The notes beneath the pieces were generated by a model that saw only the letters and a list, made by a program, of their open reading frames with translations, did no database searches and was not told where the DNA came from. A stretch of 64,000 bases of DNA, from assembly GCA_019637855.1 (NCBI GenBank), contig JAHBUX010000001.1:145337-209336 (forward strand), given 5' to 3'. Each line of letters opens with the position of its first letter. Within the stretch, counting starts at the first letter, position 1. The position numbers and the translations under genes were made by a program. This document shows, one piece after another, positions 34,364 through 53,226 of the stretch. Origin of the DNA: Bdellovibrionales bacterium (GTDB lineage Bacteria; Bdellovibrionota; Bdellovibrionia; Bdellovibrionales; UBA1609).

Positions 34364-34368
34364 AATTT
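34354..34368 (+). repeat. left copy of a 15-nt imperfect direct repeat (tRNA 3' end, att-like)
   Basis: GGCCCTACCAAATTT here versus GCCCCTACCAGATTT at 37340-37354 (13/15 identical). Confidence 0.45.
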
Positions 34369-34477
34369 GAAGACCGCTTTTTACGGAATGAGAGAAGCGG
34401 CAAGAATCTGAAAAAACTAAGCAATCTTGGGTCTCAAGTCTCATTTTTTCCAATATCCCGCGAAATAACGGCATCTG

Positions 34478-34534
34478 CTACGTTTCCGTAGTAGGCCCTG
34501 TAGTAGATGGTCGCGCTACTACAAATCTACTACG
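34478..34534. repeat. compound inverted repeat built from five CTAC/GTAG units
   Basis: CTACG(34478-34482)-TTTC-CGTAGTAG(34487-34494)-GCCC-TGTAGTAG(34499-34506)-ATGGTCGCG-CTACTACA(34516-34523)-AAT-CTACTACG(34527-34534). This gives two nested 8-bp perfect stems. Confidence 0.6.
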
Positions 34535-34568
34535 ACGACGTCACAGCCGTCATGGTTGTCACCTCTGA

Positions 34569-34823
34569 CCTGTCTTAGCCACTAGGTTAATCACTCAGGA
34601 GACAACGTGGCTTTACTCAAACGTCCGAAGGCATTCCGCCGTCCAGACTCTTCACGGGTGGCTTCAAGGATCTGAGCCAAAAAATATTCGTCAGCTCAAG
34701 GCTATCGCCGACCATTTGCGAGTTGATCTCGATTATTTATACTTTGGGATCGTACCAAATTTCGATACCGAAAAAATCGAATCGTTCAAAGACGAGATCA
34801 ATGCGGGAATTTTTGAAGTGTAG
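34569..34823 (+). pseudogene. remnant of an XRE/Cro-type HTH gene (no start codon)
   Basis: The open frame has no ATG and ends ..HGWLQGSEPKNIRQLKAIADHLRVDLDYLYFGI.., which resembles the C-terminal half of XRE-family HTH domains. Confidence 0.3.
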
Positions 34824-34838
34824 TAAGGAGGGTAAAAA

Positions 34839-34958
34839 ATGAGATGGAACTTCTCCGTCGTCAAAGAGATTTTCGGCCAATGCGACTATGAAGTCACCTG
34901 CACTCCCATGGGATCGGACAACTCCTATGAACTGGCCAACAGGGCCTTATCTAGCTGA
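34839..34958 (+). CDS. 39-aa ORF with strong RBS (not in the ORF track)
   Basis: AAGGAGGG sits 8 nt upstream of ATG 34839. The protein is MRWNFSVVKEIFGQCDYEVTCTPMGSDNSYELANRALSS. It may be a gene fragment. Confidence 0.3.
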   Translation: MRWNFSVVKEIFGQCDYEVTCTPMGSDNSYELANRALSS

Positions 34959-35006
34959 ATCTGTTGCATCTCATTTCTATTAATATTAAATTCTTCGAGT
35001 GCATTT

Positions 35007-35879
35007 ATGAAACTCCTAAAAACAGTAAGACTCATAATAAATAAGTTCTGTCTTAATTTAAAAATTGATTTCAATTGGCTCACCAATGGACCCGATCCCC
35101 TTGTCCAACGAGTTAAATATCTATTTTGGAAGTATATCTCGATCGGACTCAATCTGAATTATACCTGGATCCATCGGATCAAGTGCACGTACGATAATCG
35201 TCTTACGCCAGCTCTTCTCTCTGAATACTTTTTTGAAATTGCCAGTTTAGAAAAGCTAGTCGATTTTAATAAAATGCACGTGGTTATTGATATTGGCGCA
35301 AATATCGGTCAGTTCGCATTTGTCTTAAAATTGCGGCATCCAAATTTAAAAATTTATTCCTTTGAGCCCAATTCAACAATCTTCCCCCTCCTTCTTGAAA
35401 ATTCAAAACGTTTTAAGAACTGGGAATGCTTCAATTTTGGAATAGGAGAATCGTCGGGAAATCTTCCCCTCTATTTTGTTCTGGGGAAGTCTGCTCAGGG
35501 AAGCGTCTTCCCTAAAAATGCAAGCATTGGACTGATCTCGGACCAGATAAAAGAAATCGATGCTGAGTTCATATGTCTAACTGATTCGTTTCTAAATGAA
35601 CTGAGTATTCCTCATATTTTTGACTTCATCAAAATTGACGTCGAAGGTTCGGAAATGTCAGTCATCAAAGGATTGGAGAGTGTGAAATGGACTTACTTAT
35701 ATACGGAACTATCTGAAGAAAGATTAGGAGGGGGATCAATCACAGAAGTACTTGACCAGCTTCGCCGATCCAGATCATTAAAAGTCGACGTTTTAAATAC
35801 CACGACTCCGTCTGGACCAAGCAAAACTTTCCAGGCACTATTTGTCTGCGACCAAAGCCCACCCTCCAATCTTCGGTAA
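35007..35879 (+). CDS. FkbM-family methyltransferase
   Basis: VIDIGANIGQFAFVL, YSFEPNSTIF and FIKIDVEGSEMSVIKGL motifs. Very AT-rich codon usage compared with the flanks. Confidence 0.8.
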   Translation: MKLLKTVRLIINKFCLNLKIDFNWLTNGPDPLVQRVKYLFWKYISIGLNLNYTWIHRIKCTYDNRLTPALLSEYFFEIASLEKLVDFNKMHVVIDIGANIGQFAFVLKLRHPNLKIYSFEPNSTIFPLLLENSKRFKNWECFNFGIGESSGNLPLYFVLGKSAQGSVFPKNASIGLISDQIKEIDAEFICLTDSFLNELSIPHIFDFIKIDVEGSEMSVIKGLESVKWTYLYTELSEERLGGGSITEVLDQLRRSRSLKVDVLNTTTPSGPSKTFQALFVCDQSPPSNLR

Positions 35880-35882
35880 GCT

Positions 35883-36449
35883 CTAGCGAGGGCCGACACA
35901 GATTACGTTGATATAGCCTTCAGCGGCACCAGGAGTGCCATTATTTTCAACGCTCATACTAATTTGCGTTGAGCTACCGGAGTCTTTTACACTGCAAAGT
36001 TGGTGAGCCACGTTTGGGTCCATTGAACTACAAGTGCACGTTGGCATCTCCGAAAAAGTGCCGGAAGCGATATTTAACGTATAAACGTGAGCTGAAGTAT
36101 TATGGCTGACAGATGAAACCCATGAACCGCTTTGAGAGTATATAGTGCACGTAGAACTGGTACACTTAGAGTTATTCGTTGCACCCCCAAATCTGATCCG
36201 CTCGGTTCTGTCTGAACTTGACAGATTTGACCAGTCACCGTGTGAGTTAAGGCCCTTGAATAGGTTATCTGACATGTCAAATACAATCATTCCAACCTGA
36301 CTGTTTGTGACAACTGCTGTGGACGGAATACTTGGTGCCACGAAGTTTAAACTCTCGGCTTTTGCGAATGTTCCATCAACACTTGATGCAGAGGCGGATA
36401 GCCCCCCAATTCCTATTAGAACCGACATGACAAGATAGATTTTTTTCAT
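35883..36449 (-). CDS. secreted Cys-rich protein, unknown function
   Basis: ATG 36449 is preceded by GGGGGA. Signal peptide MKKIYLVMSVLIGIGGLSASA. The N-terminal motif SQVGMIVFDMSDNLFKGLNSHGDW is followed by a 9-Cys C-terminal region. AT-rich. Confidence 0.6.
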   Translation of the reverse strand: MKKIYLVMSVLIGIGGLSASASSVDGTFAKAESLNFVAPSIPSTAVVTNSQVGMIVFDMSDNLFKGLNSHGDWSNLSSSDRTERIRFGGATNNSKCTSSTCTIYSQSGSWVSSVSHNTSAHVYTLNIASGTFSEMPTCTCSSMDPNVAHQLCSVKDSGSSTQISMSVENNGTPGAAEGYINVICVGPR

Positions 36450-36768
36450 TTTTGTCCCCCATGGACAGATGGTCACCACAACTAGTGACAGATTAGAATC
36501 GTACCTAATGCAGCAAAGCAAATAATATTTTTCTACTTCATCTTTCCTCATATGTAAGTTGTTTGTTTACTATTGGCCATTCCAAATCAGGTTCGCGCTT
36601 ACGTCAAATCGTTTAATAATATTATTTTAGTTTATAAATCGCGATCAAGTTATCCACAACCACCTCCGCTTGCCACCAAGCCGCAAGCGTGTGATTCCTC
36701 TCAACCCCCTCCAAACCTGTTCAAACATTCAGCGTGTCACGCCTCATTGGGGTCCAGCGCCAAAACTA

Positions 36769-36793
36769 GCGGCCTTTCAGGCCGCGCGTTTTT
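36769..36793. terminator. GC hairpin flanked by A-run and T-run (bidirectional terminator-like)
   Basis: GCGGCC-TTTCA-GGCCGC at 36769-36785, then GCGTTTTT on the plus strand and TAGTTTTGG on the minus strand. It lies downstream of the transposase stub. Confidence 0.4.
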
Positions 36794-36861
36794 GGAGTGA
36801 TTCGAAGCGATTCATAGTTGCTTGGACTTTTTCGAACATTTTCCTCCGCATGGTGGTGCGG

Positions 36862-37020
36862 TTAGTCCCGGATTCTGGCCAGCCGGAACTTCCAACGTCC
36901 GGTGTTAATCGTGTCTAAGGCCGAGTGTGGTCGCTCTTCGGTGTAGTAGCGTCGCCACGTTTCGATCTTCTTCTGCGCGTGTTCCAGATCTCGAAAGGCG
37001 TGTCCAAGGAACTCAAAGAC
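36862..37020 (-). pseudogene. C-terminal stub of an IS3-family (rve/DDE) transposase
   Basis: The minus-strand translation ..EFLGHAFRDLEHAQKKIETWRRYYTEERPHSALD.. matches the conserved F.sL..A...I..W...YN..RPHS.L end of IS3 OrfB. The rest of the transposase is missing, and the region after RPHSAL appears frameshifted. Confidence 0.6.
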
Positions 37021-37259
37021 CTGGACTATGCGCGTACCTTCTGTCGGAGCTTCTGGACGAGGGTTACGATTTACAAACGGCTCTGGGTCGCTTGATTCGC
37101 CTTTACGGCGTGAAAGAGTACGCCCGCCTCGTCAAGATGGACTCCCCGGCTGTACAACGGGCGATTGCCCCGGAACACAACCCGACCAAACTCACTTTGG
37201 AGAAGCTTCTTGCTCCTCTCAAGCTTGAGTTGGATATCAAGCCAACGGATGCCGCGTAG
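37003..37259 (+). pseudogene. COG3636/HigA-like addiction-module antidote gene, 5'-truncated and frameshifted
   Basis: Frame B reads YLLSELLDEGYDLQTALGRLIRLYGVKEYARLVKMDSPAVQRAIAPEHNPTKLTLEKLLAPLKLELDIKP, an antidote-family pattern. The expected preceding ..ELKDLDYARTF is in another frame, implying a 1-nt deletion near 37035-37041. No toxin partner is present. Confidence 0.5.
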
Positions 37260-37339
37260 CCAAAACCTGGGTCAATGTAGTAGCCTGTCGTAGGTGGCAA
37301 AAACGAGCCTGGAATCATTCAAGAATTTCAGGCTCCAAA

Positions 37340-37354
37340 GCCCCTACCAGATTT
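37340..37354 (+). repeat. right copy of the 15-nt imperfect direct repeat (att-like)
   Basis: GCCCCTACCAGATTT, located exactly where the AT-rich/remnant region ends. Confidence 0.45.
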
Positions 37355-37362
37355 TCGATTGT

Positions 37363-37536
37363 CTATTTACGCTTCTTGGCGATGCACTTTTGCAGTGCCT
37401 TTGCCTTTAACTGCGGGTCTTCTTTCAGACACTCTTTTTTTGCTATTGCGTAGCTCTCCTTCTTTTTCGGGGTCGCAAAAGTGGAACCGGCGGATAGAAG
37501 AAACGCGAAGGCAATCGTAAAACTCCACATATTCAT
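37363..37536 (-). CDS. 57-aa secreted Lys-rich small protein (not in the ORF track)
   Basis: AGGAG sits 7 nt upstream of ATG 37536. The protein is MNMWSFTIAFAFLLSAGSTFA-TPKKKESYAIAKKECLKEDPQLKAKALQKCIAKKRK. Confidence 0.5.
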   Translation of the reverse strand: MNMWSFTIAFAFLLSAGSTFATPKKKESYAIAKKECLKEDPQLKAKALQKCIAKKRK

Positions 37537-37553
37537 AAATCACTCCTGCAAAA

Positions 37554-37778
37554 TTACTTCGTTTTCTTAGCGGACTTTTTCACGGTCTTCTTGCCCTTCT
37601 TCGCCGTCTTTTTAACCGGCTCGGGAGTGGGCTCGTCGGCTTGAAAGGATTGTGCGGCCTCAGCTTCTTGGCTGACTTGTGTCAACTCGGCAGGTGCAGG
37701 AGGCGGCTCTTCTTTTTTGCTAGAGGCGCAAGAGACAGAAAAAAGGCTCAGTGAAGCTAGAATCAAGAGATACTTCAT
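37554..37778 (-). CDS. 74-aa exported Lys/Pro/Glu-rich small protein (possible lipoprotein)
   Basis: ATG 37778 with GGGAG upstream. The protein is MKYLLILASLSLFSVSCASS... The 169-aa ORF in the track is an unlikely N-terminal extension. Confidence 0.5.
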   Translation of the reverse strand: MKYLLILASLSLFSVSCASSKKEEPPPAPAELTQVSQEAEAAQSFQADEPTPEPVKKTAKKGKKTVKKSAKKTK

Positions 37779-37926
37779 TGTCGATAACTCCCATGGTGGT
37801 TGAAGTGAAATTGTAACAACGGCCCACAAGCAGAACCTGATTGGAAAATAAAATCTCTTTGATCTTGGTTGGGCAGTGCGTTGGCCGGCTGTTTTCGACC
37901 CGTAAGTTTTGTTACCGTTTTTAGCT

Positions 37927-38601
37927 ATGGAACGCATTCTAGTCGTAGAAGACGATAGCCGTTTAGGAGAACATGTTTGCGGACTGGTCCAGTCCGCAGG
38001 ATTTGTTCCACGACTCGTTTCACGAATGAGCGAGTTGGACCTGTGTTTTGTCGAGAAACCCACCCTTCATGCCATTATTCTAGACCGCTTAGTCGGCGGG
38101 CAAGATACGAAGGCGCGAGTCGCGGACTTGAAGAAGCGCTGGCCGCTGACGCCCATCTTAGTTTTGTCAGCCATCAACACCCCTCTTGAGCGAGCCGAAC
38201 TTCTGAACCTTGGCGCCGATGACTACCTAGGAAAGCCTTTTTTATCGCAAGAACTTTTAGCGCGAGTTCGCGCCCTCACCCGGCGCTTTCATGGCGTACA
38301 AACCAACTACAGAGAGATAGGCGATTTGATCTTGGATATTCCTAAACGTCTTCTGATCTTTGGAGACAAACAGGATCAACTCCCCGCAAAGGAGTTTTTA
38401 CTTATCAAAATTCTTTCCGACGAAATCGCTCGGGTCATCAGTAAAAATGAGTTGCTAGACGTCGTTTGGGGCGGAGGCTTGGACGTGGAAACCAACGTTG
38501 TGGAGGCCACGGTCGCGAATTTACGTAGGCGCATGGCCGGCCTAGGGGCCACCGTCGAAATCCGCAACTCTAGAAATATAGGCTACTGGATTGAGGAGTA
38601 G
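37927..38601 (+). CDS. OmpR-family response regulator
   Basis: MERILVVEDD, receiver Asp context AIILDRLV, and a winged-helix C-terminus (ELLARVRALTRR, RNIGYWIE). Confidence 0.85.
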   Translation: MERILVVEDDSRLGEHVCGLVQSAGFVPRLVSRMSELDLCFVEKPTLHAIILDRLVGGQDTKARVADLKKRWPLTPILVLSAINTPLERAELLNLGADDYLGKPFLSQELLARVRALTRRFHGVQTNYREIGDLILDIPKRLLIFGDKQDQLPAKEFLLIKILSDEIARVISKNELLDVVWGGGLDVETNVVEATVANLRRRMAGLGATVEIRNSRNIGYWIEE

Positions 38602-39976
38602 GTTCTTCTGGATCATTTTGTCGGTGATCTCAGTGGTCGTCGTAGGGACAACCGTACTGCATGGAAAATTCTTACGCCGAGAAAAGGAAGCTCTGATCGA
38701 CCAACAGGTGCGCGAGACCGCCACCGCCCTGCTCGACTCGGAGCTAGGCGACCTACGTAAAGTCGAATTCGAAAAGGTTGAGAGCATTCTTTCCGAAGAG
38801 CTCGGTGAAAATCGAATCGGCAAATTTTTTGTCATTCGTAACAATGCCGGTGAGATCCTCTTTGAAAGCGCCGGAGCCAAACTGCTCCCCATATCCGAAC
38901 TTCCGCGCAAGCCCCGTTGGATCACCATCCAGGAAAAGGGCAAATACATACGACTACTCAATCTCAGCTTACCCAAAATTCCAGATCGGACTCTTCAAGT
39001 TGGCCTTGTGATTGGTCAAGAGCTGCTATCGCCGGGGTATTTCTCACGCGCCAATCTTTTTTTTACCGCTGCCATTATGCTTGGCGGACTTTTTTTGGCC
39101 TGGATGCTCACCACCATGCTTATGCGTCCCATTTCATGGCTCTCGAATTTTATCGGCCTTGCCGCCCAAGACTCCGGCCAAAAATTAGAACTGCCGCCTT
39201 TGCCCAAAGATTTGAAAAGCTTTGTAACGAAATCGAACTCCAAGGATGAGTTGGTCGGACTACTGGCGGGCTTTGAGAACCTGATTGAGCGTGTGAACCG
39301 AGACTACAAAATGTCGCGCGTGTGGTCCTATCAGATGGCGCATGAACTGAAGACGCCCATGGCACTGATAGAAGCCAAAATCACTGAAGGCCAGCGTCTC
39401 GGAGCCATCAAAGACCCATTGGCCAAAGATATTCTCATGGAAGTCTTTGAAATCTCCGAAACCATCACCGCGTTTTTAGCCTGGGCCGAACTTGAAAACT
39501 CGACCGGTCAAAAGCGATTGTTTGTGGTTTCCATAGCCAAAGTGCTGCAGGGACTTCGACAACGATTTGAAGTGACCTTTCCCGGTCGGATTGAAATTCG
39601 AATCACCGAAGACTTTAACGTGATGACTAATATTCAACATCTTGAGCATGCCGTTGGAAACATCATTTTGAATGCACTAATCTACTCTACGCTAGAAACA
39701 AAGGTGGTCATTGAATCGTCCGCCAATTCGATCCGCGTGCACGATCTTGGCTCGGGCATACCCACCACTGTGGTGGAGCGGCTGGGCGAACCCTTTAACA
39801 AGGGTTCGCATTCCACGCTGAGTGAATCAAAAGGCCACGGTTTAGGACTTGCTTTAGTGCAGTCGATCTGCCGAATCTACGAATGGCGACTCAATATCTC
39901 GACAGGTTCCAATGGATCCTGCGTGTCCATCGCATTCCCCGCTATTCAAAGCGAGCTGGTGAGCTATAACGGGTAA
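38591..39976 (+). CDS. sensor histidine kinase
   Basis: Two TM helices flank a ~140-aa periplasmic loop. H-box MAHELKTPMALIEA, N-box NIILNALIYS and G-box GHGLGLALV. The TTG start overlaps the regulator gene by 11 nt. Confidence 0.85.
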   Translation: MRSRFFWIILSVISVVVVGTTVLHGKFLRREKEALIDQQVRETATALLDSELGDLRKVEFEKVESILSEELGENRIGKFFVIRNNAGEILFESAGAKLLPISELPRKPRWITIQEKGKYIRLLNLSLPKIPDRTLQVGLVIGQELLSPGYFSRANLFFTAAIMLGGLFLAWMLTTMLMRPISWLSNFIGLAAQDSGQKLELPPLPKDLKSFVTKSNSKDELVGLLAGFENLIERVNRDYKMSRVWSYQMAHELKTPMALIEAKITEGQRLGAIKDPLAKDILMEVFEISETITAFLAWAELENSTGQKRLFVVSIAKVLQGLRQRFEVTFPGRIEIRITEDFNVMTNIQHLEHAVGNIILNALIYSTLETKVVIESSANSIRVHDLGSGIPTTVVERLGEPFNKGSHSTLSESKGHGLGLALVQSICRIYEWRLNISTGSNGSCVSIAFPAIQSELVSYNG

Positions 39977-39988
39977 GAGCCACGACAA

Positions 39989-41590
39989 CTAAACTTGCTT
40001 CGGCGCCTCGATCAACGACACGATCTTCCCGTTCTGCTCCGCGAGTACTGTCCCGCGAGCTGTGACTGGGGATGGGGCGCGTAATAACGTTGCGATCGAG
40101 GCCGACATATTGCCGCCATCCAGGTTCGTACCTCCCAACGTGGTCACAGGCGCGGCGTCGCCGTAGCTGCCGGCGCCGCCGGAGTTGTTGCGGACGTTGC
40201 CGACAACCATCGGTCCCTGAATGATGCCGCTATAAAATGAAGCGATACCTGCCGCACCTGCGTGATCGGAGCCAGAACCATCGTCACGACCGAAGCGACC
40301 GAATTCACCGCGCACATCGATCACAGTTTCATTGAACAGATTGGCGGCCTTCAGACGGTCTATCAACTCAAGCATACAACCGGCAAAAGCACGGTTATAA
40401 AGTGAATTACTCACTAGGCTGATCATGTCACCGGTTTCGTGCTCGTCGAAGTACAAGTCTAAGTTGCCGGGAATACCGAAGAACTGTTGTGGCGCGATTG
40501 TGATCGATCCACTGATATTGTTGAGCAATACGTACTCAGCCAAAGCGAAATGTTCCGCCAAACGAGGGATATAGGCACTGTTGAAAATCGTTCTTACGTC
40601 CGTCGCATTGATAATACTGGTGCCGTACACCCGATAGCGATTGTTGCGGGTGGTGTCGCCGATCGGCAGATCCGTGATACCGGCCATCGGCTCAGTCGCC
40701 GGCAAAATGGCGCGCTTCACGATGTCATTGTATTTGCCGTAGAGGGTATTCCAGATCGACGTTAAATCTCCCAGCGCTCCGCGCAGCAACTTATCTGCAC
40801 CTTTCTGGCTTTCAAAAATCGAGGCCGCGCCCGGGTGGCGTGAAACAGCGTAGGTTTGCAAAGAAGCCAGCGATTCATTGATAAATGACGACAATGCTGC
40901 CTGCTTAGAGCTAAACGTCGCACCGGTCTTGCTCACAAACGGGTCCAGAAGAGTCGAGATCAAGTTGCCATTGGTGAGTAAACGCACAGGCGTTATATTG
41001 GTCGAGGAGCGAAATGTATAGAACGTCGAATGCACATCCAACGCCGGGATGGGCGTGCCGGAGTTCATAGCGGCCAGCGCCACCAAACTTGTCGACGCAC
41101 TGACCGGCAAGAAGGCTTTGGCTTGTGCGGACTCATGCTGAAAGTCCTCAATATCAATCCCGCGCATGGTCAGCATATTGTTCATTAGATCCGCCATCGG
41201 GCGCATACCTCCGCCCGCTTTGGTGGTGTTGAACTGCCACAACCATGGCACGTTCAGACCTTTTAAATTCACGGTCTTGTATTCATTGGCCGTATAACGA
41301 CCGTTTGAGGCGATGTAGCTTGTGCCCACCATCGCGCTCGGCACGAAACCGGTGCTCGAATAAGGAGTTAAGAAAAGATCAAACGTCCAGCGCGGTGGCG
41401 CACCCACCATCTGTACAAAGAGATGTTTGCGCGGCTTCACTCCGGTCGCTTGCGCTAAAGCCCGATCGGCCATCCCGCTGACGATGCTGCCCATAAGCAC
41501 ATTCAACACCGAGCGCTGCAGTCCCGCGCCCAAAGTGGCCGCACCCATAATCTGTAGAGCGTCTCGGCGTGTGCATTTGTTTTTCTTCAT
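39989..41590 (-). CDS. Tat-signal protein, DUF1501/DUF1552-like (sulfatase/phosphatase-superfamily-like), unknown function
   Basis: GGGGGAG RBS before ATG 41590. Twin-arginine signal KCTRRDALQIMGAATLGAGL. The C-terminal motif GEFGRFGRDDGSGSDHAGAAG resembles the DUF1501 ..FGRTP...GRDH.. region. Confidence 0.6.
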   Translation of the reverse strand: MKKNKCTRRDALQIMGAATLGAGLQRSVLNVLMGSIVSGMADRALAQATGVKPRKHLFVQMVGAPPRWTFDLFLTPYSSTGFVPSAMVGTSYIASNGRYTANEYKTVNLKGLNVPWLWQFNTTKAGGGMRPMADLMNNMLTMRGIDIEDFQHESAQAKAFLPVSASTSLVALAAMNSGTPIPALDVHSTFYTFRSSTNITPVRLLTNGNLISTLLDPFVSKTGATFSSKQAALSSFINESLASLQTYAVSRHPGAASIFESQKGADKLLRGALGDLTSIWNTLYGKYNDIVKRAILPATEPMAGITDLPIGDTTRNNRYRVYGTSIINATDVRTIFNSAYIPRLAEHFALAEYVLLNNISGSITIAPQQFFGIPGNLDLYFDEHETGDMISLVSNSLYNRAFAGCMLELIDRLKAANLFNETVIDVRGEFGRFGRDDGSGSDHAGAAGIASFYSGIIQGPMVVGNVRNNSGGAGSYGDAAPVTTLGGTNLDGGNMSASIATLLRAPSPVTARGTVLAEQNGKIVSLIEAPKQV

Positions 41591-41612
41591 GGTCTCCCCC
41601 AACGAGCAGCGA

Positions 41613-42989
41613 TCAGTTCCCAGCTAAACCAAAATCCGAACTTCTGTACTGTGGCAGTTTCAAAATGTCCTCGATCAACAAACGAGTCTTCTGCGTGCTG
41701 CGCAGCTTTTTGCCCAAATCGATCACCGTCTGACGAACCGCTAGATCCGCCGCCGACAAAGTATGGCCATAGTCGGGATCGTTCAGATCACCGATATCCG
41801 CATTGATGCCGGTGAAGTATTGAAAGTAACGTTTAGCCGCGCAGATATAAAAGTCATCGTAGTTGGCAAGCTTAGCGCCTATATCCGCGACACTCGTAAC
41901 CGGTGTATTGATCAAAGTTCCATCGTACGAACGATAAAATAGTGTTCCGTTGGTCGGCCGTTTGCTGAATGAACTGTCACCGGTCGCTGGCCACGAAGTC
42001 TCCGCAGCCACACTGGAAGCTGAAAACTTAATGCCCACCGCCGAGTGAGCCGCACCATCTGTGGTCACCGAAAAGTATTTGAAGTTACGGATCACCGAAG
42101 CCGCACGATCCATGGAAGCATGGCACTTCGTGCAGGCGGCCGACTGACGAAAAGGCGCTTGCGCACCCGCGACCACCAACGATGTCACATCCGCCGTGCG
42201 TGCCACCGGTAGGGGGCGGCACAACACATCTTGGAACAAAGCGCGGCCCCAACGACGAGGTGTATTCACAGCACCATCGATCGCAAAGTTCACATCACCC
42301 GCCACAGTCGTTTGAATATAGGGAATCGTTCCGAGATAACCGCCACCCGCGGTAGTACCGACTTCCAATCCACCCGCGGTGAGCACGCCACTAGGCGCGG
42401 CACCGAGCAGAACTCCGGTCGGTACCAATGGCGTGGTGGCGCCGGAGGCAAACGATCCCTGTGACTGGCCTGAATAAACTCCTCTTGTGGGACTGGCCAC
42501 CGTGCGCACCGGGCGCAGATTGTCGGCACTTGTGATCACATCCTTGTAGGAAGCATTGGGATCAAACAGCGCCTTGGTGTAGTAGAGCGCGGGCGAACTG
42601 GGATCAAAAACGTCATAAGTCGCATTCGTCCACGACGGAGAGGAGTTGACCAAGAGAACGTATTGCTTGGCCGTGAACCAAGAATAGTGCAAACCCTGGA
42701 ACGTGCGCAGTACCGCTTGTGCCACCGTGTCTCCGCTATTACCGAGTGTGGTTCCACTGGCTGCAGTAAGGCGGGCACTGTCCAAAACTTCAAGACAAGC
42801 GGCAATCGGATCTTTAGTCCCTGCTTTGACCGCGGCTAAACGCGCATCGGCCGCAGGCACACGCAACTGGGTGATCTGGGCATAGCAGCGGTAATACAAG
42901 GCCACGTTCGACAGCTGTTCCGCAGCCGGGGCCGAGGGCGCAGTCGTAACAAGAGCGAGGATTGAAATCGATGCAAACGCCTTCATCAT
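41613..42989 (-). CDS. secreted CxxCH-motif protein (PSD/DUF1588-like by motif context)
   Basis: ATG 42989 overlaps the upstream TGA (ATGA). Sec signal MMKAFASISILALVTTAPSAPAA. Single CTKCH motif at nt 42120-42134, followed by ASMDRAASVIRNFKYF. Confidence 0.6.
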   Translation of the reverse strand: MMKAFASISILALVTTAPSAPAAEQLSNVALYYRCYAQITQLRVPAADARLAAVKAGTKDPIAACLEVLDSARLTAASGTTLGNSGDTVAQAVLRTFQGLHYSWFTAKQYVLLVNSSPSWTNATYDVFDPSSPALYYTKALFDPNASYKDVITSADNLRPVRTVASPTRGVYSGQSQGSFASGATTPLVPTGVLLGAAPSGVLTAGGLEVGTTAGGGYLGTIPYIQTTVAGDVNFAIDGAVNTPRRWGRALFQDVLCRPLPVARTADVTSLVVAGAQAPFRQSAACTKCHASMDRAASVIRNFKYFSVTTDGAAHSAVGIKFSASSVAAETSWPATGDSSFSKRPTNGTLFYRSYDGTLINTPVTSVADIGAKLANYDDFYICAAKRYFQYFTGINADIGDLNDPDYGHTLSAADLAVRQTVIDLGKKLRSTQKTRLLIEDILKLPQYRSSDFGLAGN

Positions 42990-45900
42990 AAAATATCCAA
43001 TGTTGAAGAGATGCAAAGAGGCAGGGCCACAAATCTCCACTGATCCAAGGCCGTATAACCCTTGGAGGCGGCCTGCGAGGCCACCGTAACCAGACTGCTC
43101 AAAACCGTATCGGGTGCCGAGCGGCCGGGATGGAATGTTTGAAAAAGCGTCTGAAGGTTGGTCGTGTTCAAGGCCGAAGCACTGGTCAAACCGGCTTTGC
43201 CTAAGACGTTGCTGACGGCTTTATCGATCTCTAAAATCTGTTCGCAAGTGCGCGTGCCGTAACCCTTGCGCATGGTATTTCCGGTCGGTGAAGCCAACGC
43301 CAAAGGCGCCGTATCACGCTCGGCCGAATTGCAACTCGAGTCATAACCTAAGCAGGGGCCGCCGTTGGCCACCACTTTGTTAAACATCATCGAATTCGAA
43401 ATGCCTTGAATCTTGGTGTCGTCAGCGGTGCTACCGGAAACAAAGAGCTCATTCATCGTCGATTCCATATAAGTGCGGGTACCCAGCGCTAGCTCATATT
43501 GACTGGCGGCTGCACCCACCGGCGGGGGTGGTGGCGGTTGCGAGCCCCCCATAAGAGCCGTGGCGATGGCCGTGATCTCATTCGCGCTCAAGAAGCTGAG
43601 TGAGCTCATCGAAGAGACTCCACCAATGGCCGCTGTGATCTGGACCGCCGTACGATTCTTTTTCGTCGAAGTGGCCAAGGCACCGTGGCAGATCGCACAG
43701 TTACTGGCGTAAAGCATCGAGCCATCTGCCGCTGGTGTGGTGCGGGTGAAATCACGCGACACATTGGCCGTGTTGCCCGCGGCATCCGTCTGACTCAGCA
43801 CGATCGTCTTTGTGCCGTCACCGTTGCTAAACGCAACATCCACGCTGTACGCACCGGCCGCGCAAGCTTTGGTCACGGGCGAAGTGAGTCCCGATCCGCT
43901 AGCGGTCACGTTGAAACTGCCTTCACAGCCCCCACTGATAGTCAGTCCTGTGGTGGCACTTGTACCCGCCGCTGGCGAATTGATCGTCAGCATCGGCGCC
44001 ACATTGTCGCGCACGAAGCTGCGGTTCAAAGTGGTGCTATTGCCCGCTGCATCGGTTTGAGCGACGACCACTGCTTTGCTACCGTCGTTATCGGAGAACA
44101 CAAGAGCGAACGAGTACGCGCCATTGGCGCAAGTGACGCTCCCTGCAGTCTTCAGACCCGTTCCAGAAAACGATACAGCCAAACCATTTTCGCAGGCGCC
44201 GGTGATGGTGACTCCCGTCTTGGCAGCGGTGTCGGCCGCAGGGCTGGCAATGGTCAGAGCCGGACCGGTGCTGTCTCTGTTAAAACTTCGGCTATCACTT
44301 CCGCTATTACCGGCTGCATCGGTCTGCGCAACGCTCACGCTTTTGACTCCGTCACCGGCCGATACCGTGAGCGTGGTTGCAAACGTCGCGTTGTTACAAG
44401 TCACTCCACCAGGAGTAGTGATGCCGCTTCCTGAAACTGTAACGGTCAATCCGGTCTCACAGGTTCCCGACAACATGAGGGATGCTCCCACCGCCGAGTT
44501 AGCTGCGGGCGCCGTGATCTTGGGTGCCGGCGCCACGTTGTCGCGCACGAAACTGCGCGTATCGCTGCCCGTGTTGCCTGCCGCATCCGTCTGGCTCACT
44601 TGCAAAGCTTTGCTGCCATCTCCGGAAGACAAATTCACCGAAACAGAGAACATGCCGTTCGAACAAGCCGTGCTCGCTGCGGCAGCAGCCCCTGCGCCGG
44701 CGATGTTCACGGTCAATCCCGAGATACAGGAGCCCGCCAACTGCAGAGATGTTTTATAAGCGCTACCAGCCGCAGGACTTGTGATCAAAATCACTGGAAC
44801 CGTATTGCTGCGGACGAAGTCGCGCGCCACCGAGCCCACATTGCCGGCCAAATCTGTCTGCGACACGCGAATATTCTTAGTGCCGTCACCGGCCGATAGA
44901 GACACTTGCACATCGTAAAGACCGTTGCTGCAAGTCGCCGATGTGGCCGTAGCACCGGTACCGGCGATCGCAACCGAAAGACCATTTTCACAACCACCTT
45001 GCAGGCGAATCGAGGCCTGGGCCTGCGTTCCCGCCGCGGGACTGTTGATGGTCACTGCCGGAGCCGTGGTGTCGCGATTGAAGCTGCGGCTGGCCGAACC
45101 TGTCTGTCCACTGGCATTGGTTTGCGAGGCGATCAGATTTTTACTGCCATCACCAGAGGTGAATGTGATCGCCGCACTGAACGCGCCATTGCTACACGTC
45201 GTATTGGCCGGCGATTGCCAACCCGAGCCGGAGAAGTTCACCGCTAAACCATTTTGACATGTTCCACTTACGGTCAAGGTGTTTACGAAAAGACTGTCCG
45301 CTGCAGGCGCCGTGATCGCCACGGCTGGACCGCTGAGTTCGGCATTTACATTGCGCGAGACCGAACCACTGTTACCGGCCGCATCCGTCTGTGTCGCGGT
45401 GATGGACTTCGCGCCATTGCCACCCATGAAAACGACGGTCGTACTATAGGCTGAATTGGCGCAATTCGCAGAAACGGCCGAAACACCGGAGCCCGTGATG
45501 TTCACCGGTAATCCGGTTTCGCAAGCCCCTGAAACAGTCACCGTTCCCGGTACACTCGCGCCTTCCGCAGGCTGAGCCACGGTTACTACGGGAGGTTTAC
45601 TGTCCTTAATAAAGGAGCGACTGGCAGTTCCACGATTGCCAGCGGCATCCGTCTGCGTAATCGTGATGTTTTTGCCGCCTTCAGCTGCCGAGAAGACAAT
45701 GGCTGCCGAATAGCGCGCCGATGTACAATTAACGCTCGATCCAGCGTTCACATCACCGCTGATCACCACCGATAGACCAGTTTCGCAAGCGCCTTGCAGA
45801 GTGACGCCGTCTTTGCCGGCGGTACCGGCAATCGGCGCATCGATGGTCGGCTGCGGCCCGCTGCTATCGCGTACAAAAGAGCGAGTGCCCGTACCCACAT

Positions 45901-47053
45901 TTCCCGCGGCATCCGTCTGCGCGACGGTCACGTTTTTAGCGCCGTCGCCAGCTGAGAACACGATGTTGGCGTTAAACGCCGAGTTGGCGCAAGTCACATT
46001 CATCGGCGCTTGCAGACCTGCGCCGCTGATCGCGACCGTCAGTCCGTTTTCGCACGTGCCGCTCAAGCTTAAACCCGTACCGCCGATAGTACCTGCCGCC
46101 GGAGCACTGATAGTGACCGCCGGTGCCGTAGTGTCACGGACGAAAGAGCGCTGCACGGAAGCCGTATTGCCCGCGGCATCGGTTTGCGAAACCGTCAGTG
46201 CCTTCGCGCCGTCACCGGCACTCAAGGCCACACTCGTGCTGAATGCCTTGTTCACACAGACCACGCTGCTCATCGCGGCAGCGCCATTTCCAGAGATGTC
46301 CACATTCAGCCCGTTTTCACAGGTTCCCTGCAGATTCACCACACTCTGAACGCTAGTACCTGCGGCGGGCTGACTCAACGTCAACAGTGGCGCGCCGGTA
46401 TCTTTAACCACATTCAATGCTCTTGAGGATTTATTGCCCGCAATATCTGTCTGCGCAAAAGTGATCTGAATGGAGCCATCCGCCGAAGTGAGCGGCAACG
46501 TGGTAGCAAACGCCCCCGCGGTGCAAATCAGAGAGTAGGTCTTTTGCCCCTCAGTCACCTGCACCGGGAGCTCGTTTTCACAAAGGCCTTGGATAATTAC
46601 GCTGGCGCCAGCCGCCGTACCCTCGGCCGGAGTTACCACACTCACAGCCGGACCCACGGTGTCGCGCACGAAAGTGCGGCCACTCGCCAAAGAACGATTC
46701 AAGCGATCGCGCTGATAAACCTGCACCGTCTTCATTCCATCCGGTGCCGTCAAGCTGACCGCCACCGAAAACTTGCCATCGGCGCAGCCCACATCCTGAC
46801 TTTGTTCAATGTCACCCGAAACAGAAACGCTAAGCCCGGCGGCGCAAGCACCTACCAGTTGCAATGAGCCTTGTGTGGGAAGACGATCGGCCGGTTCATC
46901 AATCGCCAATCGCGAATTGCTTCCGATCAAAGAACCGGAGCCGGGATCTACAGAAGAAGCCAGCGTCTTCTGCTCGCTATGGAAGGAACGGCCGCACGCC
47001 ACCAAAAGCATGGTGAACATCACCCACGCGAACATGCACAACAGCCGTCCCAT
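42986..47053 (-). CDS. giant lipoprotein: 12 tandem Ig-like modules followed by a CxxCH cytochrome-c-like domain and a ~180-aa tail
   Basis: ATG 47053 is preceded by GGGGG. Lipobox MLLVAC. Modules have the form ..F(V/N)RD...P...I..PA.G.....L.G.CE.GL.V..SG.......C..G.F......S.GDG.K...V.QTDAAGN. CAICH is at nt 43685-43699. The track's TTG start at 47122 adds 23 unlikely residues. Confidence 0.8.
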   Translation of the reverse strand: MGRLLCMFAWVMFTMLLVACGRSFHSEQKTLASSVDPGSGSLIGSNSRLAIDEPADRLPTQGSLQLVGACAAGLSVSVSGDIEQSQDVGCADGKFSVAVSLTAPDGMKTVQVYQRDRLNRSLASGRTFVRDTVGPAVSVVTPAEGTAAGASVIIQGLCENELPVQVTEGQKTYSLICTAGAFATTLPLTSADGSIQITFAQTDIAGNKSSRALNVVKDTGAPLLTLSQPAAGTSVQSVVNLQGTCENGLNVDISGNGAAAMSSVVCVNKAFSTSVALSAGDGAKALTVSQTDAAGNTASVQRSFVRDTTAPAVTISAPAAGTIGGTGLSLSGTCENGLTVAISGAGLQAPMNVTCANSAFNANIVFSAGDGAKNVTVAQTDAAGNVGTGTRSFVRDSSGPQPTIDAPIAGTAGKDGVTLQGACETGLSVVISGDVNAGSSVNCTSARYSAAIVFSAAEGGKNITITQTDAAGNRGTASRSFIKDSKPPVVTVAQPAEGASVPGTVTVSGACETGLPVNITGSGVSAVSANCANSAYSTTVVFMGGNGAKSITATQTDAAGNSGSVSRNVNAELSGPAVAITAPAADSLFVNTLTVSGTCQNGLAVNFSGSGWQSPANTTCSNGAFSAAITFTSGDGSKNLIASQTNASGQTGSASRSFNRDTTAPAVTINSPAAGTQAQASIRLQGGCENGLSVAIAGTGATATSATCSNGLYDVQVSLSAGDGTKNIRVSQTDLAGNVGSVARDFVRSNTVPVILITSPAAGSAYKTSLQLAGSCISGLTVNIAGAGAAAAASTACSNGMFSVSVNLSSGDGSKALQVSQTDAAGNTGSDTRSFVRDNVAPAPKITAPAANSAVGASLMLSGTCETGLTVTVSGSGITTPGGVTCNNATFATTLTVSAGDGVKSVSVAQTDAAGNSGSDSRSFNRDSTGPALTIASPAADTAAKTGVTITGACENGLAVSFSGTGLKTAGSVTCANGAYSFALVFSDNDGSKAVVVAQTDAAGNSTTLNRSFVRDNVAPMLTINSPAAGTSATTGLTISGGCEGSFNVTASGSGLTSPVTKACAAGAYSVDVAFSNGDGTKTIVLSQTDAAGNTANVSRDFTRTTPAADGSMLYASNCAICHGALATSTKKNRTAVQITAAIGGVSSMSSLSFLSANEITAIATALMGGSQPPPPPPVGAAASQYELALGTRTYMESTMNELFVSGSTADDTKIQGISNSMMFNKVVANGGPCLGYDSSCNSAERDTAPLALASPTGNTMRKGYGTRTCEQILEIDKAVSNVLGKAGLTSASALNTTNLQTLFQTFHPGRSAPDTVLSSLVTVASQAASKGYTALDQWRFVALPLCISSTLDIL
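43718..46906 (-). repeat. in-frame tandem coding repeats, 12 units of about 267 nt (89 aa)
   Basis: Repeat boundaries were read from the translated protein (residues ~73-1135 of the 1378-aa ORF). Each unit keeps two Cys and the QTDAAGN motif. Confidence 0.8.
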
Positions 47054-49418: not shown

Positions 49419-50609
49419 TCACAACGACACGTGAATCTGCGCCAGCGCCTGCCAAGTGTCCTTAGACACTTCCGAAGATTCGCTGTACTTCATGAAGTTT
49501 TCGAACTCGATACGAAATTCAACCCGCTGCATGGGGAAAGCGAGCAAGCCGAAACTCGCGACTAAGTTATTGGCTCTTCCCGCCACCATATTGTCCTTGT
49601 AAGCCTGACCCGAAACAAAAATATGGTAGCCGCGCGTGAAACGCTGCATGGCTTCCGAAAAAATATAGTAACCTTGCGTTTTCTCTGTGGACTTCGGTTT
49701 ATCAATAAGTAAACCGCCTTCAAACAAAATGGCGGAGCCATGACCAAGGCCGGAACGCGAAAGCAAACCGATACGTTGATTGGCCACAAACTTATTAGAA
49801 GAAGACAGGGCCGTGAGTCCCAATCGCCAAGCTTCGGCCACTTCAACTTCAGCCAACATAGAAGCGCCCGCTTGTCTTAACTCCGCTTTTTGAAACAAGT
49901 TTCCAGCGAAACCATGGAGTGTAAATTCCCACGTAGGCTTGATGTAATGCAAAGCCAAACCGTGCGCTTGATCGTTCTGATTGAGTCCAACTGCCATCCG
50001 ACTGTAGGCCATGTGATTGGCAATGCGAATGCCATACACCTTGTCCATCATTCCCGCGTACACCCATAAACTATCGGTGGCGGCCCAGCGAAAATAGTGT
50101 TCGCGCGAAATCCACGTCTTGGTGTCGCCAGGATTTCCTTTGAGTCGACGCGGGACTGGAATGTAACCATAGGAACCGACGAAGGTCTTCTTCTGATCGC
50201 GGTCAAAAAAGACCGCAACGTTGGCTTCGGCCTGCATTAATATGGTACGCAACTCACCTTGCGCTCCCGGATTGGGACGAACGGCCATATAGCGGCCTTT
50301 CAATCCGGGACGGATCCACCACGGCATCTGTGCGCTGCCCAGAAACCCAGAGGCTTCGCCAAGTTGCTCATCACTGCGACCAAAAGCAGTTAAGCGCCCA
50401 CCGATTTCACTGGCCCATAGAGCTCGACCATAATCATTTAATGGACCATTGCCCTGTCCATTGTAATGACAGGTCAAACAGGATGCGTACTTATAGCCGA
50501 TAAATTCGGGATAAGCCCAAGCGCTGGCCGAGAAGAGAAGTCCGAAGATGATGCAAAGAATTGGCATTCTTTGCAAAGCGTAGCTACAATCTATAGTTGA
50601 ATCAAACAT
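49419..50609 (-). CDS. exported protein with N-terminal CxxCH motif followed by a beta-rich (barrel-like) domain
   Basis: Signal peptide from Met15 (MPILCIIFGLLFSASAWA; ATG 50567 is the alternative start). CLTCH is at nt 50466-50480, immediately after the predicted cleavage site. About 340 aa of alternating-pattern sequence follows. Confidence 0.55.
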   Translation of the reverse strand: MFDSTIDCSYALQRMPILCIIFGLLFSASAWAYPEFIGYKYASCLTCHYNGQGNGPLNDYGRALWASEIGGRLTAFGRSDEQLGEASGFLGSAQMPWWIRPGLKGRYMAVRPNPGAQGELRTILMQAEANVAVFFDRDQKKTFVGSYGYIPVPRRLKGNPGDTKTWISREHYFRWAATDSLWVYAGMMDKVYGIRIANHMAYSRMAVGLNQNDQAHGLALHYIKPTWEFTLHGFAGNLFQKAELRQAGASMLAEVEVAEAWRLGLTALSSSNKFVANQRIGLLSRSGLGHGSAILFEGGLLIDKPKSTEKTQGYYIFSEAMQRFTRGYHIFVSGQAYKDNMVAGRANNLVASFGLLAFPMQRVEFRIEFENFMKYSESSEVSKDTWQALAQIHVSL

Positions 50610-50626
50610 TGATTTTAGGGGGCATA

Positions 50627-51157
50627 ATGGGTTTACGCGGTTTGCACTCCACGATTCTTTGGACTGTTCTCTGCTGCGGCAGCTATTCTTTCGCCGCCAA
50701 TGTGGAAATCGACGTCACTTTAAGCCCGGCCGGCAGTTACAAAGCCACCACAAAAAAAGTCACGGGCAGCGCATGGAAAACAGCTGACGGCGGTGTTGCG
50801 GCAGAAAATGTGGCGATCGACATGCGCACTCTGTCCACCGGAATCGGTCTGCGCGATAAACATACCAAAGAACATTTGATGGTAGGTAAGTTCCCGCAAG
50901 CCAAATTGGTTAAAGCCAGCGGCAAAGACGGTAAAGGTACCGCCACTATCGAAATCAAAGGCATGAAGGTCGACGTGGCCGGCACTTACAAAGTCGACGG
51001 CAACACACTGCATGCAGAATTCCCCATGCAGCTTTCTAACCTTGAGATTAAAGATGTGCGTTACATGGGTGTCGGCGTTAAAGACACTGTGAAAGTGCAC
51101 TTGGAGATTCCGCTCACGGACGCTCCTCAACGAGCAGCCGCTTCGGCCAAAAAATAG
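50627..51157 (+). CDS. YceI-family periplasmic protein
   Basis: AGGGGG RBS before ATG 50627 and a signal peptide. YceI-type motif MRTLSTGIGLRDKHTKEHL and FPQAKL. Confidence 0.75.
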   Translation: MGLRGLHSTILWTVLCCGSYSFAANVEIDVTLSPAGSYKATTKKVTGSAWKTADGGVAAENVAIDMRTLSTGIGLRDKHTKEHLMVGKFPQAKLVKASGKDGKGTATIEIKGMKVDVAGTYKVDGNTLHAEFPMQLSNLEIKDVRYMGVGVKDTVKVHLEIPLTDAPQRAAASAKK

Positions 51158-51166: not shown

Positions 51167-51541
51167 GTGAAGTTCCTAGGTGCGGTTGTGCTGACAGTTT
51201 TGCTGGTCAACGCTTCGGGCTGCGTGCAGACCGAAAATTCGAGCGCGCTCGACGGCAGTCGATATGACGATATTGGCGGCAGCGCCGCCTTTATCGCCGC
51301 GCGCACCATCATCACCAACAATTGCACGGCCAGCGGTTGCCATCCGGATATGGCTGCTGCCACCGAAGACGACTATATTTCCGCCAATCGCTTGGTTCCC
51401 GGTAACCCTGAAGGCTCAACAATCTACAATTATCTGCAAGGAAGTACGGGCAGTGGGCCAAAGAGCATGCCGAAGAACGCCTCCGCACTTAGCAGTGCGG
51501 ATATCTTAACGATTCGTGATTGGGTGCAGAACGCTCAATAA
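51167..51541 (+). CDS. small lipoprotein with PSCyt-like cytochrome-c-type domain carrying a CX4CH motif
   Basis: Lipobox LVNASGC. CTASGCH at nt 51323-51343. The downstream LVPGNPEGSTIYNYLQG....MPKNASALSSADILTIRDWVQNA matches the planctomycete-cytochrome-C-domain pattern. Confidence 0.55.
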   Translation: MKFLGAVVLTVLLVNASGCVQTENSSALDGSRYDDIGGSAAFIAARTIITNNCTASGCHPDMAAATEDDYISANRLVPGNPEGSTIYNYLQGSTGSGPKSMPKNASALSSADILTIRDWVQNAQ

Positions 51542-52610: not shown

Positions 52611-53226
52611 AGGGGGCCTCACCATAAATCTTCAACATGCGTGTGTTGGCGAACTCCACACCCCACAAAACACCACGACCATGAGTTTGAAAAATCAGCT
52701 TCTCGGCCTGAGAGTCGAAATCCGCATTGGCCGCGGAAATAAATGGACGTGGTTGCTCGATTTCGCCTTGCAGACTTTGCGTCGCCTTCCACACCAAAAC
52801 GCGGGGACCACCGGCGCCACTGTTGTGCACTTCGAGGCGCAGACGCAAGCGACCATCAAGGCCCATCCAATCCGCCGGAAGATCAAACGTCTTCTCTGCC
52901 AGATCGGGCGCCGAAATTCCCATGCTCAGTTTATCGCCGTCGCGGGTGAAGCGGATCCGCATCCCATCACGCCAGGCAAAGCCATTGAAGTGTGAATGCA
53001 GCGTGAAACTCGCCTGCGGCTGCAAGAACTGAGCTTCGATCACGAAGTGTTCGCGTGAGGTCAAGCCACGCAAAGGACGAATGAACTGCCATTGCCCGGC
53101 CGCTGAGATATTGCGCTCGTCGGTCCGCACGTGTGGCTCAACGTCAGGACTTAACGCCTTAGTCGAAGGCTTCATTCCGCAAGCGCAAATGAATAAGAAA
53201 GACAGAATCCACAAACTATTGCGCAT
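52600..53226 (-). CDS. lipoprotein, unknown function
   Basis: MRNSLWILSFLFICACG lipobox-like signal and 208 aa of beta-rich sequence. It overlaps both neighbours by 11 nt. Confidence 0.55.
   Translation of the reverse strand: MRNSLWILSFLFICACGMKPSTKALSPDVEPHVRTDERNISAAGQWQFIRPLRGLTSREHFVIEAQFLQPQASFTLHSHFNGFAWRDGMRIRFTRDGDKLSMGISAPDLAEKTFDLPADWMGLDGRLRLRLEVHNSGAGGPRVLVWKATQSLQGEIEQPRPFISAANADFDSQAEKLIFQTHGRGVLWGVEFANTRMLKIYGEAPYAH

Follow-up and report, generated by a model that had tools for sequence, protein, structure and literature searches.

A conserved three-gene unit of Bdellovibrionota appears to be a disassembled variant of the PSCyt/PSD–DUF1501/DUF1552 modules

Proteins with PSCyt ('planctomycete-specific cytochrome') and PSD domains and their DUF1501 or DUF1552 partners are among the largest unexplained gene families of Planctomycetota and Verrucomicrobiota, and some genomes of these phyla hold dozens of PSCyt/PSD copies. 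The work that He and colleagues presented in 2017 reportedly builds on an earlier study by Studholme, from 2004. Two pairing rules have been described: PSCyt2 pairs with PSD1 and neighbours DUF1501, while PSCyt3 (the Group III proteins below) pairs exclusively with PSD4, often also with PSD2, PSD3 or PSD5, and neighbours DUF1552 (He et al. 2017, PMC5615132, supplement). The PSCyt proteins of the Planctomycetota–Verrucomicrobiota–Chlamydiota (PVC) phyla were predicted to be periplasmic or cytoplasmic (PMC5615132), and the DUF1501–PSCyt module was reported to be preferentially a PVC one, with a possible role in electron transport (Kamneva et al. 2012, PMC3542564). Here we describe three adjacent genes (genes 1, 2 and 3) on a stretch of 64,000 nucleotides (nt) from a Bdellovibrionales bacterium (assembly GCA_019637855.1, contig JAHBUX010000001.1, positions 145,337 to 209,336), hereafter the window. 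This triad appears to be a disassembled variant of the PVC modules. A preliminary description of the window, made from its letters, knew of no description of such an architecture; a full-text literature search on the domain names gave no published description of the Bdellovibrionota triad, returned nothing on Bdellovibrio and yielded no demonstrated function.

The three genes are conserved as a unit. We scanned one genome per GTDB species and then searched the open reading frames (ORFs) with hidden Markov models (HMMs) of the three proteins. The scan gave 49 loci, nearly all from Bdellovibrionota, among them loci on complete genomes of B. bacteriovorus and Bdellovibrio sp. strains in culture, and the three genes were adjacent in essentially every locus with a long enough contig (about 50 loci). 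When the flanking ORFs were clustered, only the C-terminal domain of gene 1 (the tail domain), gene 2 and gene 3 were common to all loci (50, 50 and 49 loci, respectively). The triad noticed in the preliminary description is therefore no peculiarity of the window: it is a conserved three-gene unit, widespread in Bdellovibrionota and thus found outside the PVC phyla. Its gene order is either tail–gene 2–gene 3, as in the window, or gene 2–gene 3–tail, as in B. bacteriovorus, with a single case of gene 2–tail–gene 3 (L026). Paralogous copies exist, as four separate loci (L013, L020, L032 and L040) come from one metagenome-assembled genome.

The first two genes are also found as one. In protein P0096 (L054:335-2647, 770 aa), a lipobox, a cytochrome c domain and the tail domain are fused to mature gene 2, with a homologue of gene 3 next in line. 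This protein has lost the signal peptide of gene 2, which argues against a frameshift artefact, and the fusion gives independent support for a physical unit of the gene 1 and gene 2 products. As a separate observation on gene order, in L026, the single locus with the third order, it is an ORF of 1206 aa (L026:9578-13195) carrying about nine modules of cytochrome-c-like type that lies between the homologues of genes 2 and 3.

In the window, re-reading of the ORFs and translations found every sequence feature listed in the preliminary description at its position (Table 1). The ATG of gene 2 and the TGA of gene 1 share four nt (ATGA at 42986-42989), and gene 3 starts after a gap of 22 nt that holds GGGGGAG, a Shine-Dalgarno-like run. 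The scan for promoters and terminators around the operon never rose above shuffle expectation, so the operon boundaries are drawn from gene spacing only. The predicted export signals, namely a lipoprotein signal peptide in gene 1, a signal peptide of the general secretory (Sec) type in gene 2 and a twin-arginine translocation (Tat) signal in gene 3, place all three proteins outside the cytoplasm.

Gene 1 consists, in order, of a signal peptide with lipobox, twelve immunoglobulin (Ig)-like repeats, a predicted class-I cytochrome c domain, a poly-Pro hinge and the tail domain. Its N-terminus, MGRLLCMFAWVMFTMLLVAC, holds the signal peptide and the lipobox, and the residue at position +2 after the lipid Cys is Gly, not Asp. 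Where its N-terminus is complete, the tail protein of nearly every locus starts with a signal peptide that ends in Cys (for example FQNC, LAAC or LVGC); as judged from this motif, the subunit is a lipoprotein. The Ig repeats recur every 88-89 aa, are on average 43% identical in pairwise comparison and have two conserved Cys each. The NCBIfam model Ca_tandemer (NF033510) matched gene 1 in 12 stretches with 164.9 bits (cut-off 50; 4e-49), while Pfam gave Big_13 (102 bits, cut-off 27) plus Big_6 and Glucodextran_B. Tandem Repeats Finder detected no DNA-level tandem repeats in gene 1, which argues for an old, diverged array.

The preliminary description had correctly recognised the lipobox, the 12 Ig modules, the CAICH motif and the hinge. 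The stalk and the CxxCH domain are both present here, but neither is general in the family. Repeats of the window type were found in only three of about 50 loci (12 in the window, 12 in L003 and six in L004): the Ig stalk is an optional part of gene 1. The same holds for the cytochrome c domain. Upstream of the tail domain, the number of CxxCH motifs ranges from zero to six across loci (six in L032), and the tail proteins of the B. bacteriovorus type, of about 230 aa, have none. A tail protein without a cytochrome domain is often followed by a separate gene of about 340 aa whose end is a cytochrome c domain; this domain is thus an optional module, present in 0-6 copies or as a separate gene. 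Some relatives carry PA14 or other large N-terminal extensions. In the window, the candidate Met ligand of the cytochrome c domain lies in the stretch SSMSSL, and a Met in the context (S/T/Q)M..L was seen in all five homologues inspected. Scanned alone, the domain reached 26.7 bits with Pfam Cytochrome_CBB3 (PF13442), just under the cut-off of 27, and its hhalign comparison with the N-terminal cytochrome c of canonical Group III proteins gave E 3e-7 over only 18 columns around the CxxCH.

Conservation in gene 1 therefore centres not on the stalk or the CxxCH but on the C-terminal tail domain, which the preliminary description had not singled out. In an alignment of 34 sequences (A2), G81, C120, W189 and C197 are invariant, with C84 and C91 close to it, and the domain is marked by four conserved Cys and by the motif WR.....C.S..W at its C-terminal end. 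Scans of the 34 members gave no recurrent Pfam family, and a profile sequence search gave no relative in the PDB.

Gene 2 has one CTKCH motif (nt 42120-42134). C286, C289, H290 and D294 are invariant in 132 homologues of 28-44% identity; at such divergence, this invariance indicates that the motif is not a chance match and that the haem motif is functional, and gene 2 would carry one covalently bound haem. The single CTKCH and the Sec signal reported earlier for this gene are borne out. The family is large: an HMM search of 1.84 billion representative proteins (clusters at 50% identity) matched 888 clusters at E<1e-3, 678 of them even at E<1e-30, and of these matches the best 150 full-length relatives were considered, a set too close to show distant PVC-type proteins. 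The 51 relatives found by word sharing are all unnamed or hypothetical, and the named sources among them are Bdellovibrio, Pseudobdellovibrionaceae or Bdellovibrionia.

The suggested relationship of gene 2 to the PSCyt/PSD proteins was recovered in its C-terminal half. Among 97 family members, Pfam PSCyt3 (DUF1588) matched 58 (best 1.1e-4) and PSD2 (DUF1585) matched 57 (best 1.4e-5), all below the gathering threshold; the window protein reached 13.7 bits with PSCyt3 (cut-off 27). Compared by hhalign with canonical PSCyt3+PSD2, this half aligned over 184 columns up to the C-terminus (Prob 96%, E 4.4e-9), with a score of 64 versus 15±3 for 100 column shuffles (z=15), and the common stretches include the CxxCH..(M/I)D motif and GG.LG. 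These profile comparisons establish homology of this half to PSCyt3+PSD2, as a remote relative and not as a member by the Pfam threshold. The other families of these modules are scarce or absent in the 97 members: PSD1 matched two, at E 0.05 or weaker, and PSCyt2, PSD3 and PSD5 matched none. PSD4 (DUF1592) was considered for the N-terminal half and is unsupported, as no member matched at E<=1 (0/97) and the co-linear hhalign alignment (E 0.16-0.3) stayed at shuffle level, with 16 of 100 shuffles scoring as high.

The AlphaFold2 model of gene 2 is confident (predicted local distance difference test, pLDDT, 92; predicted template modelling score, pTM, 0.90). Searched by Foldseek against the PDB, it had no fold match (best E 3), and the gene 2 profile returned nothing meaningful from PDB sequences. 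Neither gene 2 nor gene 3 is covered by an NCBIfam model. The triad thus holds two undescribed domains without a Pfam or PDB counterpart, namely the tail domain and the N-terminal half of gene 2. As a side observation, one gene 2 homologue (P0187, 630 aa) has a PA14 domain (5.5e-13) inserted in this half.

Gene 3 carries the Tat motif TRRDAL (41555-41572) and the stretch GEFGRFGRDDGSGSDH, and the twin Arg, R8 and R9, are nearly invariant in its family. The preliminary description had left it as DUF1501- or DUF1552-like, and the two parts of this assignment fared differently: Pfam DUF1501 matched 37/37 family members (best 6.7e-11), whereas DUF1552 matched none of the 37 and is rejected as an identity for gene 3. 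Precomputed matches to PF07394 were found for 26 of 36 relatives (27 of 37 rows when the window protein is included). The window protein itself scored 25.6 bits with DUF1501 (PF07394; cut-off 27), over model positions 266-336 of 390 only. The N-terminal third of gene 3 has a remote similarity (E 4.6e-5, in part owing to the Tat signal) to the DUF1552-like neighbours of canonical Group III proteins, which have an HxxSHH motif.

In the AlphaFold2 model of gene 3 (pLDDT 87), the top 50 PDB matches by Foldseek are all sulfatases or LtaS, while the sole match of the gene 3 profile among PDB sequences is a Tat signal peptide. As judged from the family matches and from this model, gene 3 encodes a divergent DUF1501 protein with a fold of the sulfatase/alkaline-phosphatase superfamily. 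The family has 21 invariant residues, including H152, E352, D382, H384, E408, R432 and H443, a His/Asp/Glu/Arg set that would be compatible with a metal site. D382 and H384 (Asp-x-His) and the late H443 sit where metal ligands would be expected in the alkaline-phosphatase superfamily. Pfam Sulfatase matched 0/37 members, and no C/S-x-P-x-R (formylglycine) nucleophile motif is conserved in the family.

A further claim of the preliminary description was that the PSCyt/PSD module is split across genes 1 and 2. For comparison, canonical proteins were fetched from metagenome contigs by the motif C..CH...DP.GF..ENFD; ten of them were confirmed by Pfam as cytochrome c (CBB3), PSD3, an insert, PSD5, PSD4, PSCyt3 and PSD2, in this order, with PSCyt1 also matched in 8/10, and a Tat-type DUF1552-like gene follows these Group III genes. 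The tail domain resembled PSD5 at its C-terminal end (hhalign E 0.016; 0/100 shuffles reached the score) and PSD3 at the N-terminal R.Y..S....F helix (E 0.1; 2/100 shuffles), and PSD3 followed by PSD5 is the canonical order. When the tail and gene 2 profiles were concatenated, one local alignment ran from the end of the tail into the N-terminus of mature gene 2, paired with the stretch from the end of PSD5 to the start of PSD4. The summed PSD3+PSD5+PSD4 score exceeded all 100 shuffles (z 3.9), with column shuffling being a lenient null model. A PSCyt3+PSD2-like half lies in gene 2 as the split would have it, PSD3 and PSD5 in the tail are weakly suggested and PSD4 is undetected. Given this co-linear similarity and the one fusion, the split-module reading is plausible.

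We favour, with moderate confidence, the reading that the operon is one stalked copy of a Bdellovibrionota three-subunit extracytoplasmic system, in which a membrane-tethered haem relay would feed an alkaline-phosphatase-fold metalloprotein. The make-up of the unit, how far it is conserved, its homologies and the fusion are shown above; that the subunits form a complex, that electrons flow through it and that a metal and a substrate take part is inferred. The gene 1 product (subunit A) would tether the system to the membrane by its lipid anchor, with the 12-Ig stalk setting the cytochrome c and tail end apart from this anchor, and would bind the gene 2 product (subunit B), a contact proposed on the basis of the translational coupling seen here and of the single polypeptide found in one relative. 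The gene 3 product (subunit C) would fold in the cytoplasm, probably with its metal, before Tat export, the route expected for a protein that folds or loads metal there. The haems of A and B could then pass electrons between the metal centre of C and cytochromes in solution or in the membrane; as the cytochrome c modules lie close by but are interchangeable, they fit a wire for electron entry or exit better than a catalytic core. Finally, C would perform a redox-dependent change of a substrate in the periplasm or at the cell surface. The accessory PA14 (P0187) and Ig modules, together with the carbohydrate-binding modules of the PVC proteins, hint at a polymeric or surface-bound substrate.

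Several observations weigh against this scheme. By a rough estimate, the 12-Ig stalk would measure about 40 nm or more, longer than a typical periplasm. In classical B. bacteriovorus (L025, L030, L033 and L044), a cytochrome c module is absent up to 8 kb from the locus; the extra cytochrome is therefore dispensable. PDB searches gave no solved structural relative for gene 2 or the tail domain, the fold matches of gene 3 are weak (E ~6e-4, template modelling (TM) score ~0.3), and the similarities of the tail to PSD3 and PSD5 and of the gene 2 N-terminal half to PSD4 are individually not significant (E 0.016-0.3). Gene 3 may also be without the nucleophile or one of the metal ligands, in which case it might not be a catalyst: the segment after its first beta-strand is GAPPRW, in the place where canonical DUF1501 presumably has GG.S..D, a replacement that points to a possible loss.

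The system could instead work outside the cell, with a Ca2+-stiffened stalk holding a complex of haem proteins and metalloprotein tens of nm from the surface for redox chemistry or substrate capture on prey or particles, and with the products of genes 2 and 3 reaching it by a type II secretion route after Sec or Tat export. The 12 Ca_tandemer-type repeats, as in extracellular adhesins, and the Gly in place of Asp after the lipid Cys agree with such a placement, as do the PA14 or other large N-terminal extensions of some relatives; moreover, the locus L003 keeps 12 repeats at 46% gene 2 identity, which suggests that stalk length is under selection. We nevertheless consider this version unlikely, since most family members are short lipoproteins without a stalk, no secretion or surface-sorting signal was identified, and the PVC PSCyt proteins are predicted to be periplasmic or cytoplasmic (PMC5615132).

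It is quite improbable, in our view, that gene 3 is a non-catalytic binding protein or scaffold with an alkaline-phosphatase fold and that the triad is a haem-based sensor or an accessory of ligand binding or transport. The replaced N-terminal DUF1501 motif region, the Pfam match confined to the C-terminal part of the model, the weak likeness to real hydrolases and the lack of the sulfatase nucleophile motif would all suit such a protein. Set against them are the 21 invariant residues, with a His/Asp/Glu/Arg set typical of an active or metal site, and the Tat export, which usually means that a cofactor or metal is loaded in the cytoplasm; as to a sensor, the two-component pair beside gene 3 is not conserved with the triad, which gives no link to signalling. 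That gene 3 encodes a conventional sulfatase or phosphatase, with no relation to the haem proteins encoded beside it, is highly improbable: its top fold matches are indeed sulfatases and LtaS, but the reading is contradicted by the co-occurrence of the triad in about 50 loci in different orders and by the fusion of two of its genes, and neither a formylglycine motif nor a Pfam Sulfatase match (0/37) was found.

The features of the triad and of its surroundings in the window are collected in Table 1.

Table 1. Positions in the window of the three genes, of their domains and of the neighbouring genes
Feature	Position (nt)	Strand	Description
Gene 1	42986-47053	minus	1355 aa, predicted lipoprotein subunit; from ORF and translation
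Gene 1, signal peptide	46994-47053	minus	Lipobox LLVAC, Cys20 as predicted lipidation site; read from sequence
Gene 1, Ig array	43736-46927	minus	Twelve tandem Ig-like repeats, Ca_tandemer / Big_13 type
Gene 1, cytochrome c domain	43538-43735	minus	Predicted class-I; CAICH at 43685-43699, aa 1119
Gene 1, tail domain	42989-43498	minus	About 170-180 aa, universal part of gene 1
Gene 2	41613-42989	minus	458 aa, predicted Sec-exported monohaem subunit
Gene 2, PSCyt3+PSD2-like half	41616-42368	minus	aa ~208-458; Pfam and hhalign
Gene 3	39989-41590	minus	533 aa, predicted Tat-exported divergent DUF1501 protein
Gene 3, DUF1501-matching segment	40193-40408	minus	aa 395-466; Pfam
OmpR-type response regulator	37909-38601	plus	Converges on gene 3
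Histidine kinase	38591-39976	plus	11-nt overlap with the response regulator; 12-nt gap to gene 3
Exported CxxCH protein	49419-50609	minus	396 aa; CxxCH just after the signal peptide
YceI-like protein	50597-51157	plus	Pfam YceI 1.2e-9
Small PSCyt1-like cytochrome c protein	51167-51541	plus	124 aa; 4 kb from the triad

The convergent OmpR-type regulator and histidine kinase pointed out in the preliminary description are present, but they are not conserved beside the triad elsewhere and so are not part of the system. As a dedicated regulator, this pair is rejected: response-regulator homologues occur in just two other loci, not adjacent to the triad.

On the other side of the operon, three genes may form a looser redox neighbourhood of the triad. 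In 12 other loci, a homologue of the 396-aa CxxCH protein, which had no Pfam match, is encoded no more than 8 kb from the triad, and all 13 proteins keep the motif YPxFIGYxYxxCxxCH..G.G.L.DYGRAL; the 396-aa protein could be a haem-bearing outer-membrane protein. The YceI-like gene overlaps its start divergently, and the pair recurs in eight other triad loci. The 124-aa protein has CTASGCH where its homologues have CxSCH, which is either a CX4CH motif or a degenerate site. Its family aligned with the N-terminal PSCyt1/CBB3-type cytochrome c of canonical Group III proteins (hhalign Prob 95%, E 1.7e-8), and a homologous domain is found in the gene of about 340 aa that directly follows the tail gene in Bdellovibrio-type loci. 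The three neighbours recur near the triad in 12, eight and several other loci, respectively, mostly in Bdellovibrio spp. and with the triad in its other order. Among the neighbouring genes of the window, neither a canonical PSD gene nor a DUF1552 gene was found.

Further from the triad, the G+C content falls to 0.45-0.48 at positions 34001-38000, compared to 0.52-0.58 elsewhere in the window; this stretch, possibly an acquired islet, encodes an FkbM-type methyltransferase (34959-35876) along with several ORFs that have no family match. Lipase maturation factor domains (LMF1 and LMF1_C, 1e-49 to 1e-51) are encoded at 32634-34187 on the plus strand; the LMF1 family is best known from eukaryotes. 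On the minus strand, an ankyrin-repeat protein (53216-54454; Ank_2 2e-13) is flanked by several large ORFs of 350-620 aa without a Pfam match.

A system related to the PVC modules is thus a core feature of another phylum, Bdellovibrionota, in which a lipoprotein, a monohaem protein and a Tat-exported protein are separate subunits with plug-in cytochrome c and stalk modules. This split marks the essential parts, namely the tail domain, the PSCyt3/PSD2-like protein and the alkaline-phosphatase-fold protein, and offers a simpler, subunit-resolved version of a long-standing puzzle. The small single-copy versions in cultured B. bacteriovorus should make knockouts and biochemistry feasible. A wider reading, which we put forward tentatively and regard as somewhat doubtful, is that the triad and the PVC PSCyt/PSD–DUF1501/1552 machines are homologous, the triad being a form that is disassembled by nature, and that the whole superfamily is an unrecognised class of extracytoplasmic enzymes that couple a haem relay to a metalloenzyme with an alkaline-phosphatase fold. 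The subunit boundaries would then fall between the cytochrome c, the PSD3..PSD5-like lipoprotein domain, the domain at the PSD4 position together with PSCyt3-PSD2, and the alkaline-phosphatase-fold protein. If this is true, the stalked variant of the window would put the enzyme tens of nm from its membrane anchor, and the function of the whole superfamily would become testable by genetics in cultured B. bacteriovorus.

The known systems share different parts with the triad. Like the Ca2+-stabilised Ig stalks of adhesins, gene 1 has a long array of Ca_tandemer-type repeats; unlike them, its stalk joins a lipid anchor to a cytochrome c domain and the tail domain, not to an adhesin tip, and each repeat has a Cys pair. 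With S1 sulfatases and LtaS, gene 3 shares the overall fold, the Asp-x-His pair and the late His, as predicted from the model and the alignment. It differs from them in its sequence (about 10% identity at a TM score of ~0.3), in the lack of the C/S-x-P-x-R motif, in its Tat signal and in having an obligatory haem-protein partner.

Closer to the triad are the Group II modules, that is PSCyt1/PSCyt2/PSD1 with DUF1501 (PMC3542564). In both, a Tat-exported DUF1501 protein adjoins a CxxCH multidomain protein, paralogous copies occur in one genome, and carbohydrate- or protein-binding accessory domains are found. The gene 2 family, however, has next to no PSD1 and no PSCyt2 matches, and the DUF1501 model is matched by gene 3 in its C-terminal third only, with the N-terminal half of gene 3 aligning better with the DUF1552 type.

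The Group III PSCyt3 proteins (He et al. 2017) are compared last. They are single chains, whereas the triad is spread over two or three polypeptides, the first of which is a lipoprotein; the triad has no detectable PSD4, its partner matches DUF1501 and not DUF1552, its PSCyt3 and PSD2 scores in Pfam are sub-threshold, and its host belongs to Bdellovibrionota. Under the rules linking PSCyt3 to DUF1552 and PSCyt2 to DUF1501 (PMC5615132), genes 2 and 3 would form a cross-type pairing. As read from the profile matches, the triad breaks both rules, combining a PSCyt3/PSD2-like protein that lacks a detectable PSD4 with a DUF1501-like neighbour, and it is split as well. On the other hand, the C-terminal half of gene 2 corresponds to PSCyt3+PSD2, the tail weakly matches PSD3 and PSD5 in the right order, accessory Ig and PA14 domains occur in both, and, as in Group III, a cytochrome c stands at the start of the module and a Tat-exported alkaline-phosphatase-fold partner immediately downstream.

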